The notes beneath the pieces were generated by a model. That model did no database searches and was not told the origin of the DNA. It saw only the letters and a list, made by a program, of their open reading frames with translations. This document shows, in pieces, positions 1 to 16,036 of a stretch of DNA of 17,337 nt; within the stretch, counting starts at the first letter, position 1; every line of letters starts with the position of its first letter. A program made the position numbers and the translations under genes. The stretch is from a virus (lineage: Duplodnaviria; Heunggongvirae; Uroviricota; Caudoviricetes): the IMG/VR virus record IMGVR_UViG_2778261161_000005. The stretch is one strand, 5' to 3'.

Positions 1-447
1 CATCTCTGTTGCCGGGATGCCTTCCAGTACAGGCCAGAAAGAGCCATCATCAAGCCCGAGATCGCGGCGTTCGGTTGCCAGCATGATAAGATCGGCATAT
101 TTCACGGGCGTACTCATAACTGGGGGTAACCCGTATTTCTCACGGATTACGGCGTCAATTTTTTCTTCCATCCGTTTATAGTCAGGAAGAAGGCGTTTCA
201 GTGGAGCGGGAATATCCTGGCAATACGCTTCTGTTGCATCATGCATTAACGCTTCAAAAGCAAATTCCTGCGGCACCAGCTGGCTGCAAAGCACCGCATG
301 TTGGGCGACACTGTAGAAGTGAGAAAGATGACCGGCAAAGCGGCAGATATTTGAAAGGGAAACCGCGATATCGTTAATCACGATGTCGTCTTTATTTATC
401 TTGTCATAATAAAAATGCTTCCCGGAAAAAGTTTTAATAAATGACAT
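1..447 (-). CDS. yfdR: HD-domain phosphohydrolase, YfdR-like (putative 5'-deoxynucleotidase); partial, 3' end runs off the window
   Basis: Minus-strand ATG at 445-447 preceded by GGAGAA SD; hand translation MSFIKTFSGKHFYYDKINKDD... stays open to position 1 and contains H..HD-type motifs (AQHAV, MHDATE). Sits directly downstream of the DUF2303 gene as in the K-12 CPS-53 yfdQ-yfdR order (from memory). Not in the ORF track because no stop lies in the window. Confidence 0.55.
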   Translation of the reverse strand, partial: MSFIKTFSGKHFYYDKINKDDIVINDIAVSLSNICRFAGHLSHFYSVAQHAVLCSQLVPQEFAFEALMHDATEAYCQDIPAPLKRLLPDYKRMEEKIDAVIREKYGLPPVMSTPVKYADLIMLATERRDLGLDDGSFWPVLEGIPATEM

Positions 448-574
448 TTTGTTCTCCACGTATATGCGCTGCACCGCGCTGAGTTTGGGTAAAAGGAAGC
501 CCTCACCATCCGGTGATTATTGAGTTAATTACGTTTCCATAAATGCCCCCGCAGGGGCATTTGCAGTAATGAAA

Positions 575-1399
575 TCAGGCGGTGAAAGTACCAATAAAGG
601 TTTCTACTTTGCTGTCTTTGAATTTCTCAACAAGCAGATCACGAAATTCGTTAGCCATATCTTCCTGCACCGCTTCCAGCTGAATAATGCGCAGAACCAG
701 TACAGGACGATCGCCAGTGATAATGCTGAGGCGTAATTTAAACGGACGTTCTTTCAGACCTTCAAACGGAACGCATTTAATTTCAAATGCCACTGGCATA
801 ATGTCTTTGGTCTTCGCTTCGACAGATTCCATCAGGGAGCGTTTGCCGCTGAAGTCATTATCTTCAAAATCAGCGGTCTGGTTTGCTTCAATCGTGATTT
901 TACGGACTGCCGCAGCTGCTTTTGTTGCCTGAATAGCGTCACCATTAGCATCAAAGCCCACAAGGTAGTCGGCCCAGTCTTCAATCCATTCTGCCAGTGA
1001 CTTCTGGGAGTTACGCTCGCCGTTAACAGACAACAGGGCAGAGAACGGTGCTGTCTTTTTCAGTTTGAGAGTGGCGGTGTTATCTGCGTGACCTGGTTCA
1101 TCAATAGTACCCAGGTTAAGTACACTGACGGCACGCATATTATCAGCATCGATAAAGCAGCGGGTGCCTTCATCTGCAAGATCTTTAGAATAACGGGTAA
1201 AGTCATCGATGCTGGCAGTGGAAAGCGCACCACGGAAACGGAAGCGATTTAAATTAAATTTTTCCAGATCATGAATGCGGAAATTCTCAGGCAATACCAC
1301 AGCATCGGCACCAATCTTACTGATAATTTCATTAACACCCTGAGCAGAAATAAGGGCATGGATTTGATTAATTGCGGTTGCGTCTAAGTTCTGAGACAT
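575..1399 (-). CDS. yfdQ: DUF2303-like prophage protein (YfdQ-like), 274 aa
   Basis: Long ORF from the six-frame track; the 274-aa length and position between a 120-aa ORF and an HD-domain gene match the CPS-53 yfdP-yfdQ-yfdR arrangement as I recall it. Confidence 0.6.
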
Positions 1400-1464
1400 A
1401 ATAAGTCCTCACTATATAAAGATATTCAGTGATGAGATAAATAATCAGTTAATTAAGAACGATA

Positions 1465-1827
1465 TTAATGACCTGCTGCGCGTAGTTTTCCGTCAGGTTC
1501 ACCGGCAAGAGTCAGTAATTGTCCCTGGTCTTCCTGCAGAATAGTCAGGCGACCACCGCGATTGACATACATCGGCGTTTCGGTGGTGTCTTCTTCGGAA
1601 ATTTTCCCGCGGTTAGTCGGGCGAACATATGAGAGTTTGTGTTTGATTTTCACACGGTTCTCATCAAATGGTTCGATTTCCAGGTTGAGTGAGACCTTAC
1701 CTTTGGTTTTCGTGTTCATCACACCGGAAGCGACTTCACTGAGAACTGCGCCGATTTTGGTTTCAAATACGCCGCCGTCCAGCTCCCCGATAAATGCCTG
1801 CACATCAGTACTGCGTTCGCTAGCCAT
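1465..1827 (-). CDS. small prophage protein, YfdP-like (120 aa); the track ORF 1465..2058 is trimmed to the ATG at 1825-1827
   Basis: The internal ATG (MASERSTDVQAF...) is preceded by GGAGCAGCAAA (SD GGAG). The upstream part of the track ORF is Cys/Arg-rich and lies inside the GC-rich noncoding stretch, so the longer start is unlikely. Confidence 0.55.
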   Translation of the reverse strand: MASERSTDVQAFIGELDGGVFETKIGAVLSEVASGVMNTKTKGKVSLNLEIEPFDENRVKIKHKLSYVRPTNRGKISEEDTTETPMYVNRGGRLTILQEDQGQLLTLAGEPDGKLRAAGH

Positions 1828-2423
1828 TTTGCTGCTCCTCATCATATCGACCCTGCAAGGTCGGTTGGTTTCTCCACAAAACAGAGAAGAACACCTGCGG
1901 TGGCAGCCGCCCGGATGGATTGGGTTATGAGCCCGTCGTCCGGTGATGCTCTTCTCTGTTTTGTAAAAAGAGCGGTACCAGCCGGAAGCAAGTGTACAAA
2001 CTGGTACCGCCAAAGCAGTGGCTGTTGTGGTGGGGTTGTCACTCAGGCGTATGGTCAACCTGACAATCCGGTGTCCTCAACGGGGAAAGAGTAACCCAGC
2101 CATACTTACCGCCGCGCCATTTCGCGGATGACCACAACGCTGAGAGCACTTAGCCAGTTACGGCACCACACTTTGTCGCGGCTCCATAAATGCCCTCATC
2201 GTTGCACCCTGGTCTCTTCCCAGGCGTCAAACCGGATCGCCACGCTGGTTAGGCGTCTTATCAGCATCATCATTGACTTGCACATTCCGGCTACCTGGTT
2301 TGTTTGCCCTAGCAAGGAGTGGATTGTCCCCTTTAACGTCCCCAGACCGCTAACGACGCATGTGCCATACGCCGTGTTACAACCAAATTTTGTTTGAATC
2401 TTGCCTGCCTCATGTTTCTTTTG

Positions 2424-2456
2424 GATACATTATGTATCTCATAGGTACATTGTCAA
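2424..2456 (-). promoter_or_regulatory. leftward sigma70-like promoter (pL-like) with overlapping operator palindrome
   Basis: On the minus strand: TTGACA (plus 2451-2456), 16-nt spacer, CATAAT (plus 2429-2434). The perfect palindrome GATACAT-T-ATGTATC (2424-2438) overlaps the -10. Confidence 0.45.
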
Positions 2457-2458
2457 GT

Positions 2459-2483
2459 ATAAAAAAACCTGCCGAAGCAGGTT
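2459..2483 (-). terminator. rho-independent terminator of the repressor gene
   Basis: Minus-strand hairpin AACCTGC-TTCG-GCAGGTT followed by a U-run (plus-strand A-run 2459-2467), 13 nt after the repressor stop codon. Confidence 0.6.
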
Positions 2484-2495
2484 CATAAATATTGA

Positions 2496-3170
2496 TTAGG
2501 CCTTTATTGTGTATCTTCTTGGTTTTCCCGAGAAAATCACTGTACCAATTATAGAGCAATTACCGTTAATCTTAATGTAAGGCTCAGGCCAGTTTGGGTT
2601 TAATGCTTTGAGATAACGCTGTGTTCCATCTTCTATCAATCGCTTGAAGGTGGTTTCGCCTGTATCGTGCATCAATGCAATAACGTCGTCACCGTGGCAG
2701 GCAGGGACTTCGGGATCAACAAAAATCATGTCTCCAGGGCGGTACTCATCAATCATTGAATCACCAATCACCCGCAAGATATAAGTCATTTCGCCACAGG
2801 GTACAGGGCAGGGATACGTTTCTGCTGTGCTCAAATCAACCTCAGAATAGCCAACTTCTTTCCATGCTCCGGCCTGTACCCATGATATGACAGGGACTAA
2901 CGTTATTTGTTTGTTAGTGATTGAAACATCAGGTTTTTTTGTGATGTTCGTTGTCTGGTGTTCTTGATCAAGCCATCCGACAGGCAGGTCGAAACATTTT
3001 TCGATGTGCCGTGCCATGCTGTCACCGATATTTTTAGTAGCGCCATCCCCCATAAACCTGCTGGTTTGGGTTGGCTCGCGATCAATCATGGTGGCAAAGG
3101 ATGAATTTCCGCCAACACCATCTCTCAGTTTTCTGGCGTTAGACCGCCGGATGTCATGGATTGTTTTCAT
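2496..3170 (-). CDS. prophage repressor, cI/LexA-like with C-terminal S24 peptidase domain (224 aa)
   Basis: C-terminal half carries the Ser (GDSM) and Lys (TFKRL) motifs of S24 self-cleaving repressors and a candidate Ala-Gly cleavage site (VQAGAW). Divergently arranged with a Cro-like gene. Confidence 0.8.
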   Translation of the reverse strand: MKTIHDIRRSNARKLRDGVGGNSSFATMIDREPTQTSRFMGDGATKNIGDSMARHIEKCFDLPVGWLDQEHQTTNITKKPDVSITNKQITLVPVISWVQAGAWKEVGYSEVDLSTAETYPCPVPCGEMTYILRVIGDSMIDEYRPGDMIFVDPEVPACHGDDVIALMHDTGETTFKRLIEDGTQRYLKALNPNWPEPYIKINGNCSIIGTVIFSGKPRRYTIKA

Positions 3171-3185
3171 AACGAAATTAAAACC

Positions 3186-3209
3186 TTTGTACCGATAAGG
3201 TACAAGTAC
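3186..3209. promoter_or_regulatory. operator-like overlapping palindromes in the repressor/cro divergent intergenic region
   Basis: TTGTACC-GATAA-GGTACAA (3186-3204) overlapping GGTAC-AA-GTACC (3198-3209); three GTAC cores spaced about 10 bp apart between the divergent repressor and cro starts. Confidence 0.45.
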
Positions 3210-3260
3210 CTTGAAGGTTCATTTCAATCATGTAATGTGTATACTGGAGGTACATATTGT

Positions 3261-4931: not shown

Positions 4932-5231
4932 AAAAATTCCTTAATACTGATAACTGGGCGCACTATACACACGTTCCTGAAGAAAGCTATAGTTTTTTGA
5001 TGGGGTTGAAGATGGCTGGATGTCTAAAATAAACATTGCTTCATATGTTCAACTATGCGTTAATGATTGCGTCGGTTTGAAGAACAGACGATATACGAAG
5101 TAGTTTACTAAAGCAGTTCTCATTTCAGGTGTTATTCACTTATTCCTTCTTTGAGTCTCTCCAATTAAGTACGAAGTCGTTTCTGTTATACAAGCCATTT
5201 ATGCCGAAAGGCTCAAGTTAAGGAATGTAGA

Positions 5232-5447
5232 ATGTCAAATAAAATGACTGGTTTAGTAAAATGGTTTAACGCTGATAAAGGTTTTGGCTTTATTTCTCCT
5301 GTTGATGGTAGTAAAGATGTGTTTGTGCATTTTTCTGCGATTCAGAATGATAATTTTCGAACCTTATTTGAAGGTCAAAAGGTTACCTTCTCTGTAGAGA
5401 GTGGTGCTAAAGGTCCTGCAGCAGCAAATGTCATAATTACTGATTAA
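5232..5447 (+). CDS. cspB: cold-shock protein CspB (71 aa)
   Basis: Translation [38 protein letters not shown]... carries the RNP1 (KGFGFI) and RNP2 (VFVHF) motifs; about 270 nt of upstream leader-length DNA as in cspA-family genes. Confidence 0.9.
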
Positions 5448-5728
5448 AATTCATAGTTTGTCTGTATACGATAACGAAGAAGGCTGATGCCTGAGTGGAG
5501 ATACAGACAGAGTGGTGAATATTGGATCTCTTTAATAAATAGTAAGGAGGTCCAATACATGAAACAATGGCCAGCATATTTGGCAATAACTTAATCAGGA
5601 AAAGTATGCTAACCATTGTGGTGAAGTGCAGGTTTGCTGCATGAATAGTTTTACAGCAGAAGCTAACTGCTGGCATAGCAAAACAAAGTGCGTAAGTGGA
5701 TGACTCCCACAAAAAGTACCACAATATT

Positions 5729-8320: not shown

Positions 8321-8683
8321 ATTAATATTAAATCGGATTATTTTTAGCGCTGAATGTGAAATTTAAATAAAAAGGACTCTTCCATGAGTCAAAATCCTTG
8401 AAATCTTAAGGGTAAGATAAAAGGTCATTAGACAGAATGACACGTTTTATTAATAAATAAAGCTATTGTTTCATTCGTGTGTTTTTCTTTACAAAAGTAA
8501 TCCTTGCTATGGTTGGTTAATCATGCGTTAATGGTGTTCTGGTTTGTTACAAAATTATCTGAAGCAGTCATTGTTATAATTTTATTATTTGTACCTCTTG
8601 AGATCTCCTTGTTGGTTTTTCTCTCTGATATTTTTTTTCGGACCATTCTGCCCAAGGGCTAACTTCTTCAAAAGGTAATAATG

Positions 8684-8896
8684 ATGTCTAACAAAATGAC
8701 TGGTTTAGTGAAATGGTTTAACCCTGAAAAAGGTTTTGGTTTCATCACGCCGAAAGATGGTAGCAAAGATGTGTTTGTCCATTTCTCAGTTATTCAGAGC
8801 AACGATTTCAAAACGTTAACTGAGAATCAGGAAGTCGAATTTGGTATTGAGAACGGACCTAAAGGCCCCGCGGCTGTTCATGTAGTGGCACTTTGA
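8684..8896 (+). CDS. cspI: cold-shock protein CspI (70 aa)
   Basis: Translation [45 protein letters not shown]... matches CspI as recalled; about 360 nt of upstream leader-length DNA. The track starts one codon earlier (8681). Confidence 0.9.
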
Positions 8897-9100
8897 GGTA
8901 GAAAATATTACAAACCATATTCACTTTAGATGCCCGTGTTGCCATGGTTCTCAGTATAGAACATCATCTTTTGATGTTTCTGACAGGAATCCTTTCGGGG
9001 CAAAATGTATCTTTTGTAAATCAATGATGATTACATTTGATAATATTTCACAATACTTAAATGTTAGCCGTCTGTCGTTAGATTTAAGAAAGTGAAAATG

Positions 9101-15461: not shown

Positions 15462-16036
15462 TGGCATTCAGAATGAGTGAACAACCACGGACCATAAAAA
15501 TTTATAATCTGCTGGCCGGAACTAATGAATTTATTGGTGAAGGTGACGCATATATTCCGCCTCATACAGGTCTGCCAGCAAACAGTACCGATATTGCACC
15601 GCCAGATATTCCGGCAGGCTTCGTGGCTGTTTTCAACAGTGATGAGGCATCGTGGCATCTCGTTGAAGACCATCGGGGTAAAACGGTTTATGACGTAGCG
15701 TCAGGGGACGCGTTATTTATTTCTGAACTCGGTCCGTTACCGGAAAATGTTACCTGGTTATCGCCGGAAGGGGAGTTTCAGAAGTGGAACGGCACAGCCT
15801 GGGTGAAAGATGCAGAAGCAGAAAAACTGTTCCGGATCCGGGAGGCGGAAGAAACAAAAAACAGCCTGATGCAGGTAGCCAGTGAGCATATTGCGCCGCT
15901 TCAGGATGCTGCAGATCTGGAAATTGCAACGGAGGAAGAAATCTCGTTGCTGGAAGCATGGAAAAAGTATCGGGTATTGCTGAACCGTGTTGATACGTCA
16001 ACTGCACAGGATATTGAATGGCCAGCACTGCCGTAG
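15461..16036 (+). CDS. tail fibre assembly protein (Tfa), 191 aa
   Basis: Translation [39 protein letters not shown]... matches TfaQ/TfaR-type proteins as recalled; start overlaps the stf stop (TAATG). Confidence 0.85.

Follow-up and report, generated by a model that had tools for sequence, protein, structure and literature searches.

The stretch of DNA considered here (hereafter the window) comprises 17,337 nt of a virus of the class Caudoviricetes (IMG/VR record IMGVR_UViG_2778261161_000005), and it begins with three co-oriented genes on the minus strand that we identify with near certainty as yfdR, yfdQ and yfdP. The first gene of this operon is yfdP (positions 1465-1827), which encodes a 120-aa protein and has its ATG start codon at position 1827, with GAGGAG upstream of it. 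This gene is followed by yfdQ (575-1399), which encodes a 274-aa member of the DUF2303 family, and by a yfdR-like gene for an HD-domain 5'-deoxynucleotidase (1-447). An initial annotation, made from the letters alone, had described three co-oriented genes of these kinds in positions 1-1827, and family matches far beyond chance now confirm that description. The range given at that time is sound for the genes, but its end at 1827 is merely the yfdP start codon, and the control region of the operon (1828-2456) lies outside it. The same annotation held that the functions of the proteins were not established from sequence. This still applies to YfdP and YfdQ, but it had gone unnoticed that the genes are named E. 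coli K-12 genes that have been partly studied.

Each gene was assigned to a family by profile matching. YfdQ matches the Pfam DUF2303 model (PF10065) with 309.3 bits against a cut-off of 26.6, over profile positions 2-269 of 269, and its identity to K-12 YfdQ supports the same assignment. Among the PHROG families, YfdR matches phrog_318 (1e-94), YfdQ matches phrog_210 (4e-120) and YfdP matches phrog_204 (1e-49). Homologues of YfdP bear the precomputed label PF27127. This model is missing from the Pfam copy used, and the membership of YfdP in its family is therefore given by the phrog_204 match together with the position of the gene immediately 5' of a DUF2303 gene.

Because the window start cuts through yfdR, this gene is incomplete: the N-terminal 149 of its 178 codons are present, and its last 29 codons fall outside the window. 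The metal-binding H...HD...D residues read from the translation (H50, H69-D70 and D119) all fall within the portion present, and alignments to the HD_3 and YfbR-like families span residues 41-104, as expected for an HD-domain phosphohydrolase. The family was identified from this translation, from phrog_318 and from the full-length copy of the gene in E. coli Ec1119, and it carries the PHROGs label deoxyribonucleoside 5'-monophosphate phosphatase. YfdR has the HD fold and the H...HD...D residues in common with YfbR and with Dmp of phage T5; the link to T5 Dmp is one that we presume from the PHROG label. Its best, though weak, matches are to the Pfam YfbR-like family and to an NCBIfam 5'-deoxynucleotidase family. 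When scored as a 149-aa partial protein, YfdR remains below the cut-offs of both (PF12917, 24.9 against 25.9 bits; NF003009, NCBIfam PRK03826, 20.5 against 122 bits). The solved structure nearest to it is 2gz4 (E = 4e-14). These scores suggest that YfdR is related to YfbR without being its equivalog, and it also differs from YfbR by a lower nucleotide affinity and by a separate activity, the binding of DnaA (PMC4776307).

Over 2.5 kb, the window and the chromosome of E. coli Ec1119 are 100% identical. The NCBI annotation of that chromosome names the copies yfdR, yfdQ and yfdP, and the prophage that carries them is integrated beside yjjG. The three proteins are 98.9-99.2% identical to their counterparts in the K-12 prophage CPS-53 (YfdR, compared through the full-length copy, 98.9%; YfdQ, 98.9%). 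The yfdP-yfdQ-yfdR-yfdS-yfdT cluster of CPS-53 (also called KpLE1) resembles that of the window in gene order and spacing, with YfdP, YfdQ, YfdR and YfdS about 99% identical. The two loci differ upstream of yfdP, where CPS-53 (locus L003, 9248-9604) has lost the repressor, the pL promoter and the whole leader and matches the window only over the 19 nt that immediately precede the yfdP ATG. As a consequence of this loss, experiments in K-12 are silent on native regulation of the operon. In the window, unlike in CPS-53, the regulatory surroundings of the operon are intact.

The operon has been named, is partly characterized and is very common in E. coli prophages. Of 5426 complete E. coli genomes, 4713 contain some match to the 2.5-kb query. 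At least 80% of the query is covered in 2061 complete E. coli genomes and in 46 phage records, which include 2H10, cdtI, mEp460, Ayreon and phages that carry the Shiga toxin genes Stx2c; the operon is also present in Stx1-, Stx2a- and Stx2c-converting phages. Across genera of Enterobacterales, YfdP, YfdQ and YfdR retain 55-75% identity. Plasmid carriage is limited to 23 of 72,556 records, and these are mainly mislabelled chromosomes or phage-sized circles. The module is therefore phage-specific.

Promoter, operator and layout of the operon

A ymfK-like gene for a phage repressor of the S24/LexA family (2496-3170, minus strand) directly precedes the three genes on their own strand; it was recognized as an open reading frame and is annotated in Ec1119. 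The predicted intrinsic terminator of the repressor gene (2465-2484, minus strand), found by a terminator scan and annotated in phage Ayreon as well, is located just upstream of a pL-type promoter (2429-2456, minus strand). In this promoter, the hexamers TTGACA and CATAAT are separated by a 16-nt spacer and agree with the sigma-70 consensus at 11 of 12 positions. Between the hexamers is a 17-bp operator (2433-2449) with the pattern TGTACC-N5-GGTACA, which occurs six times in the window, where 0.47 matches would be expected. Three copies of this operator are present at 3188-3254, in the gap between the repressor gene and a cro-like gene. Because the operator within the promoter also occurs three times in this gap, pL is predicted to be repressor-controlled.

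Lambdoid pL operons are recognized by a co-oriented promoter downstream of the repressor gene and by an operator held in common with the pR/pRM region, and both features are found here. This arrangement indicates that yfdP, yfdQ and yfdR are the opening genes of a lambdoid early-left (pL) operon. A placement under repressor control in such an operon had been proposed in the initial annotation, and it is upheld by the promoter at 2429-2456, the shared operator, the strand in common with the repressor gene and the continuation of the operon to yfdS and int. Specifically, the operon in Ec1119 extends beyond yfdR through a yfdS-like gene and gene remnants to int. No exo/bet/gam/erf-type genes are annotated between yfdR and int in this genome.

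Phages ST64B (gp35-37), LLS (gp37-39) and phiNP carry the same three families in the same order and in the same early-left place, with the YfdQ proteins of ST64B and phiNP only 57-59% identical to that of the window. LLS and ST64B have been grouped in a class without a Rec module (PMC12315714), which matches the missing Rec module of the window prophage. This class was reported to be rich in Chi sites (PMC12315714), whereas Chi (GCTGGTGG) is sparse here, with two sites in the 17.3 kb that the count covers (7711 and 10904, both on the plus strand).

Within the operon, the gap between yfdQ and yfdR is 127 nt long and has a predicted folding energy of -35.3 kcal/mol. Directly 3' of the yfdQ stop codon, folding predicts a GC-rich hairpin, AAAUGCCCC-UGCG-GGGGCAUUU (541-562, minus strand), that lacks a U-tract. 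In phage Ayreon, the depositors labelled the equivalent site a terminator. This hairpin may be an mRNA-stabilizing or attenuating structure, and it could give yfdP/yfdQ and yfdR unequal expression levels.

A structured leader RNA upstream of yfdP

An untranslated leader of approximately 595 nt extends from pL to yfdP. Its G+C content is 53%, compared with 45.5% in the window, and the fold of the whole leader has a z-score of -4.9. The Prokaryotic Genome Annotation Pipeline annotates no gene within the leader of Ec1119. As judged from folding and composition, the 5' part of the leader (2012-2422, minus strand) is highly structured and is devoid of a convincing open reading frame. This 5' stretch varies among prophages, and in other loci the repressor gene and yfdP are separated by about 600 to 1440 bp.

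The 5' part is followed by a predicted intrinsic terminator, GGCGGUACCAG...CUGGUACCGC with the tail UCUUUUU (1965-2011, minus strand), which was recognized from sequence and fold and was missed by the automatic terminator scan because its loop is longer than 8 nt. Directly after the terminator is a conserved 25-bp helix (1871-1969, minus strand). The 5' arm of this helix (1969-1945) begins in the terminator U-tract, its 3' arm (1895-1871) ends in the conserved sequence GUGUGGAGAA, and its apical part is 49 nt long and includes GGGCUCAUAACCC (1922-1934). A stem-loop scan revealed, in addition, a small GC hairpin (1846-1865, minus strand) between the helix and the yfdP Shine-Dalgarno sequence. 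In other genera, the stem of this hairpin differs in sequence and keeps its self-complementarity (CGGCGGUGGCAGCCGCC, GCAGUGCGAACUGC and others).

To compare leaders, we took a single genome of each species and extracted the sequence upstream of yfdP, which yielded 71 loci; the helix architecture is found in about 50 of 60 distinct loci. Covariation was assessed in 29 sequences from various genera and species, which were placed in a gap-free register on the invariant TGT of the 3' arm. Canonical pairs account for 92.7% of the pairs over the 25 stem positions, and two-sided changes occur at 20 of these 25 positions. For example, one position carries G-C in 11 sequences, C-G in 9, A-U in 7 and U-A in 1. 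In control analyses, registers shifted by 1-3 positions gave 36-63% canonical pairs, and column shuffles gave 70% with a maximum of 73%. The choice of a register for each sequence biases the result toward pairing. This bias is answered by a control in which the 5' part was shuffled: the helix through the same anchor has 19.2 pairs as observed and a mean of 8.8 pairs after shuffling. A conventional analysis with MAFFT and RNAalifold retrieved only the basal 9 pairs, because the arms were misaligned. These comparisons strongly indicate that the 25-bp helix is real and that it covaries over more than 20 genera of Enterobacterales.

The helix tip, GGGCUCAUAACCC, is formed by three G-C pairs around a CUCAUAA loop. 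The Escherichia/Enterobacter/Kosakonia/Klebsiella group retains it, with CUCAUUC as a variant; Serratia, Yersinia and Proteus have other sequences in its place. We take the tip to be shaped like the anticodon stem-loop of initiator tRNA. ARAGORN found no tRNA genes. Neither the window leader nor 12 related loci gave an Rfam match that reached the gathering threshold, and the best E-values for the window leader were at chance level.

In phage lambda, the leader that precedes the first pL gene carries nutL and a hairpin sensitive to RNase III. The window leader resembles this pL-N leader in that a long untranslated region follows an operator-controlled pL and a long double-stranded RNA helix is positioned upstream of the ribosome-binding site. 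It differs from the lambda leader in that an intrinsic terminator precedes the helix and has its U-tract used in the helix 5' arm. No N gene or boxA/boxB sequence was identified, an N-like protein not having been looked for systematically, and a comparison made only by eye showed no evident resemblance to putL/putR of phage HK022.

Several loci of other genera carry variations on this architecture. A longer terminator-ended element with conserved CAACCAACACYAGGGG...GAAGAUAAUGUUCUG takes the place of the simple terminator upstream of yfdP in Serratia, Proteus, Xenorhabdus, Phytobacter and Sodalis (L150:4380-4460, L141, L115, L103 and L110), and this element has no Rfam match. It bears a faint likeness to the GGAUGA...CAAUG part of HK022 put RNA. 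The GAUAAUGUUCUG element of other genera is faintly similar to put RNA. In addition, the loop of the helix carries a conserved AGUMUAAA on its 3' side in loci from Yersinia, Serratia and Chania (L124, L126, L131, L144, L150 and L153; CAGTATAAA / TAGTCTAAA). This sequence resembles a -10 box, and it may represent a candidate internal promoter within the hairpin.

The leader also includes the site of a published RNA. sRNA-17 of E. coli K1 strain RS218 is a 193-nt RNA that its authors described as trans-acting (PMC7719688). The sRNA-17 primers, northern probe and alignment map to the leader on the yfdP strand (window 1965-2137, minus strand), and the 3' end of the RNA coincides with the leader terminator at 1965-2011. 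The window contains only the 3'-terminal 65 nt or so of sRNA-17, and the middle of the RS218 leader bears a different insert. When the published primers are mapped, the amplicon used for quantitative reverse transcription PCR starts about 250 nt upstream of the 5' end determined by rapid amplification of cDNA ends; from this we infer that a longer leader transcript must exist. The RNA looks like a portion of the yfdP leader that arises by termination or processing.

When sRNA-17 is deleted, read counts rise from 0.5 to 47 for yfdP and from 0 to 8.5 for yfdR (PMC7719688). This derepression fits a disturbance of the leader in cis, and the defined leader thereby offers a cis explanation for the sRNA-17 phenotype of this neonatal-meningitis E. 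coli. Removal of the terminator was considered as the cause of the deletion phenotype and is not established, as the terminator hairpin is spared by the published primers used for the deletion.

The presence of leader RNA in lysogens bears on another explanation, namely that the operon is cargo of benefit to the lysogen, whose low expression in the prophage state (for example, through the sRNA-17 leader) slows replication or raises stress tolerance. Consistent with this explanation, sRNA-17 can be detected in lysogens and is responsive to both ArcA and oxygen (PMC7719688), and the genes have remained intact in the decayed prophage CPS-53. However, the promoter contains a repressor operator, a terminator lies ahead of the genes, and yfdP and yfdR reads are close to zero in wild-type RS218 lysogens (PMC7719688). 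Moreover, yfdP and yfdQ are also found in early operons of Xanthomonas and Vibrio phages, the lifestyles of which were not checked. We consider a benefit to the lysogen to be an improbable role.

The yfdP-yfdQ pair and its neighbours

In 72 of 73 loci, yfdP is the gene immediately upstream of yfdQ; these loci include those of Vibrio, Pseudomonas and Xanthomonas phages, in which a hidden Markov model built from enterobacterial YfdP detects the gene upstream of yfdQ with E-values of 1e-25 to 1e-38. The yfdR gene is present in 58 of the 73 loci. The conserved unit is therefore the pair, not the trio, since yfdR is optional and often replaced. In ten sampled loci where yfdR is not adjacent, the next gene encodes a single-stranded DNA-binding protein (SSB), a DEDD 3'-5' exonuclease, an HNH endonuclease, a leucine-rich-repeat protein or an unassigned open reading frame. 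SSB follows the pair in Proteus and Hahella loci and is found just downstream in Vibrio phages too. The yfdP-yfdQ pair is set among genes of DNA metabolism. In prophages of Serratia, Atlantibacter and Acerihabitans, leucine-rich-repeat genes are inserted between yfdQ and yfdR (L099:5947-6762, L101:5956-6744 and L114:5877-6986).

When examined for domain fusions that might hint at function, the YfdP family, which comprises 522 clusters at 50% identity, proved to consist almost wholly of stand-alone proteins of 110-125 aa. The most conserved part of the protein (PT.RG...E..TT.TPMYV..GG.LT) is predicted to be disordered, which suggests that it is a partner-binding segment; the tail that is both conserved and disordered spans residues 70-105. 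AlphaFold models (AF2) have predicted local distance difference test scores of 70 for YfdP and 78 for YfdQ, and neither model has convincing fold relatives in fold libraries. A DNA-mimic role was also considered and rejected: the isoelectric points of 5.0-5.7 correspond to a modest acidic excess, and two distant YfdP homologues have near-neutral values (6.9 and 7.9).

Profile searches of the Protein Data Bank (PDB) returned nothing for YfdP and a single entry, 9o7m, for YfdQ. This entry is entitled 'YfdQ Protein', contains 36 chains and is 98.8% identical to a protein of Xanthomonas phage MET23-P3. It includes no YfdP-like chain, it is absent from the fold libraries searched (last release April 2026), and no paper that describes or cites 9O7M was found in the searchable literature. 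On the basis of this 36-chain homologue, YfdQ forms a large homo-oligomer, and 9o7m is likely to reveal the assembly state of the YfdQ family.

An interpretation of 9o7m as a virion map was rejected as probably incorrect, because the PDB contains no entry nearly identical to the capsid protein of the Xanthomonas phage that it matches. The related proposal that YfdQ-family proteins are packaged in the virion, injected with the DNA and active at the start of infection draws on the detection of gp10, a DUF2303 protein of Burkholderia phage JC1, in purified virions by mass spectrometry (PMC9144972). This is one proteomic report on a distant phage, yfdQ resides in a repressor-controlled early operon rather than among structural genes, and 9o7m is probably not derived from a virion, all of which make packaging of YfdQ highly improbable.

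The genomic setting of the pair permits a different explanation, in which YfdP and YfdQ constitute an unrecognized accessory complex for recombination, repair or single-stranded DNA, working with SSB and exonucleases to offset the missing Rec module, and YfdR is an add-on. Distant phages do place the pair beside SSB, DEDD exonuclease and recombinase genes, and, as described above, the prophage has no recombination genes of the known types between yfdR and int. Furthermore, yfdQ deletion mutants are reported to be weakly sensitive to methyl methanesulfonate and H2O2 (cited in PMC4776307), and YfdQ is a large oligomer like many annealing proteins. In contrast, the cluster is also carried by phages with a complete four-function Rec module, such as ArgO145, and the authors who reported this judged a hidden recombinase unlikely (PMC12315714). 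Xanthomonas phages MET23-P3 and JUN5 likewise hold a recombinase, an exonuclease and SSB in addition to the pair. We found no sequence or fold likeness between YfdP or YfdQ and Rec module proteins of the Rad52, RecT, Erf, gp2.5 or Gam types. Clear homology to housekeeping or recombination proteins, which the initial annotation had named as the observation that would speak against a phage-host conflict, is likewise not seen. Given this mixed evidence, an accessory complex of this kind appears unlikely.

A resident lambdoid phage has also been reported to form more plaques when YfdQ is produced (bioRxiv 10.1101/413146).

Host replication and other roles considered

The proteins of K-12 provide the most direct information on function. 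YfdR binds domain I of DnaA (PMC4776307). Multicopy yfdQ and yfdR, together with either yfdS or yfdT, suppress over-initiation and inhibit initiation at oriC in wild-type cells, and oriC replication in vitro is inhibited in extracts that contain an oversupply of YfdQRST (PMC4776307). Because the window proteins are 98.9-99.2% identical to those of K-12 and are encoded in the same order and with the same spacing, these data apply directly to them. DnaA binding and oriC inhibition are the only demonstrated activity of near-identical proteins. On balance, we therefore favour, with some reserve, the takeover of host replication early in lytic growth as the most likely role of the operon.

A plausible sequence of events can be assembled from these features. 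In the lysogen, the S24-type repressor would hold the operon off by acting on the single operator inside pL. After induction, transcription would cross the structured leader of about 595 nt and would partly halt at the intrinsic terminator. RNA that reads through is predicted, from its sequence and from covariation, to fold into the 25-bp helix upstream of yfdP. A helix of this length is typical of RNase III substrates, and on length only it might be cleaved. YfdP and YfdQ would then be produced as what appears to be an ancient, invariably paired two-protein module. YfdR would bind DnaA domain I at Phe46 in competition with DiaA and DnaB and, with YfdQ and either YfdS or YfdT, would block new rounds from oriC, as seen for the K-12 proteins at raised copy number only. 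The YfdP-YfdQ pair probably acts on replication or on single-stranded DNA intermediates, as its constant neighbours (SSB, DEDD exonuclease, recombinase and HD hydrolase) suggest.

Several observations weigh against a takeover of host replication. The replication effect is limited to multicopy or overproduced genes, deletion of yfdQRST in K-12 altered neither initiation nor hydroxyurea resistance, and yfdP is dispensable for the initiation block (PMC4776307). Many phages keep yfdP-yfdQ without yfdR. Because yfdP is dispensable and yfdR is often missing, the core pair must have a function of its own. In addition, CPS-53 is a cryptic prophage from which the leader has been lost, and no fold or sequence relative of YfdP or YfdQ offers a biochemical hint. 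The proposed sequence of events leaves the passage of the phage beyond the leader terminator unaccounted for, and in it both terminator strength and RNase III cleavage are predicted properties.

The initial annotation had instead suggested that the operon could affect nucleotide pools or host defences. In its fullest form, this explanation holds that the HD hydrolase (elsewhere the DEDD exonuclease) destroys immune signals or deoxyribonucleoside monophosphates and that YfdP-YfdQ sequesters or inhibits a defence factor. Early pL expression is the usual place of lambdoid anti-host genes, HD and DEDD enzymes recur beside the pair, the leucine-rich-repeat insertions between yfdQ and yfdR in some genera point to a variable, conflict-type locus, and the PHROGs label of the YfdR family denotes a phosphatase of deoxyribonucleoside monophosphates. 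However, YfdR is reported to have low affinities for nucleotides, far below those of YfbR (PMC4776307, citing Zimmerman et al. 2008). None of the three proteins matched a model of PADLOC-DB 2.0 even at E<=1, a weak negative for anti-defence because this library covers defence systems and not anti-defence proteins, and no published defence-related or anti-defence phenotype was found in the literature searched. The identity of 55-75% across Enterobacterales genera is also unlike that of typical fast-evolving anti-defence genes. The suggestion is thus unsupported as stated, and we regard a counter-defence or nucleotide-pool module as quite unlikely.

The interest of the operon lies largely in YfdP and YfdQ, which are extremely common early phage proteins without an assigned function. 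What remains novel is this pair and the leader RNA, which is located outside positions 1-1827. The question of what YfdP and YfdQ do can be approached through the pair as the conserved unit, the solved YfdQ assembly, and the defined leader with its promoter, operator, terminator and helix. A tentative proposal, which we consider possible rather than probable as a whole, joins both subjects. It holds that YfdP-YfdQ would be a self-contained, widespread phage module with a function independent of YfdR and DnaA, which may be host takeover, single-stranded DNA handling or counter-defence. The leader would be an undescribed cis-regulatory RNA of Enterobacterales, in which the terminator U-tract is reused in a covarying helix and the tip present in the E. 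coli group is a mimic of the anticodon stem-loop of initiator tRNA.

Other structured RNAs are present elsewhere in the window. Rfam matches above the gathering score include IS009 RNA (15804-16002, plus strand, 221 bits) in the terminase/portal/head part. Two leaders of the cspA thermoregulator type (5071-5510 and 8537-8942, both plus strand, 156 and 117 bits, respectively) belong to cold-shock-like genes of the prophage.

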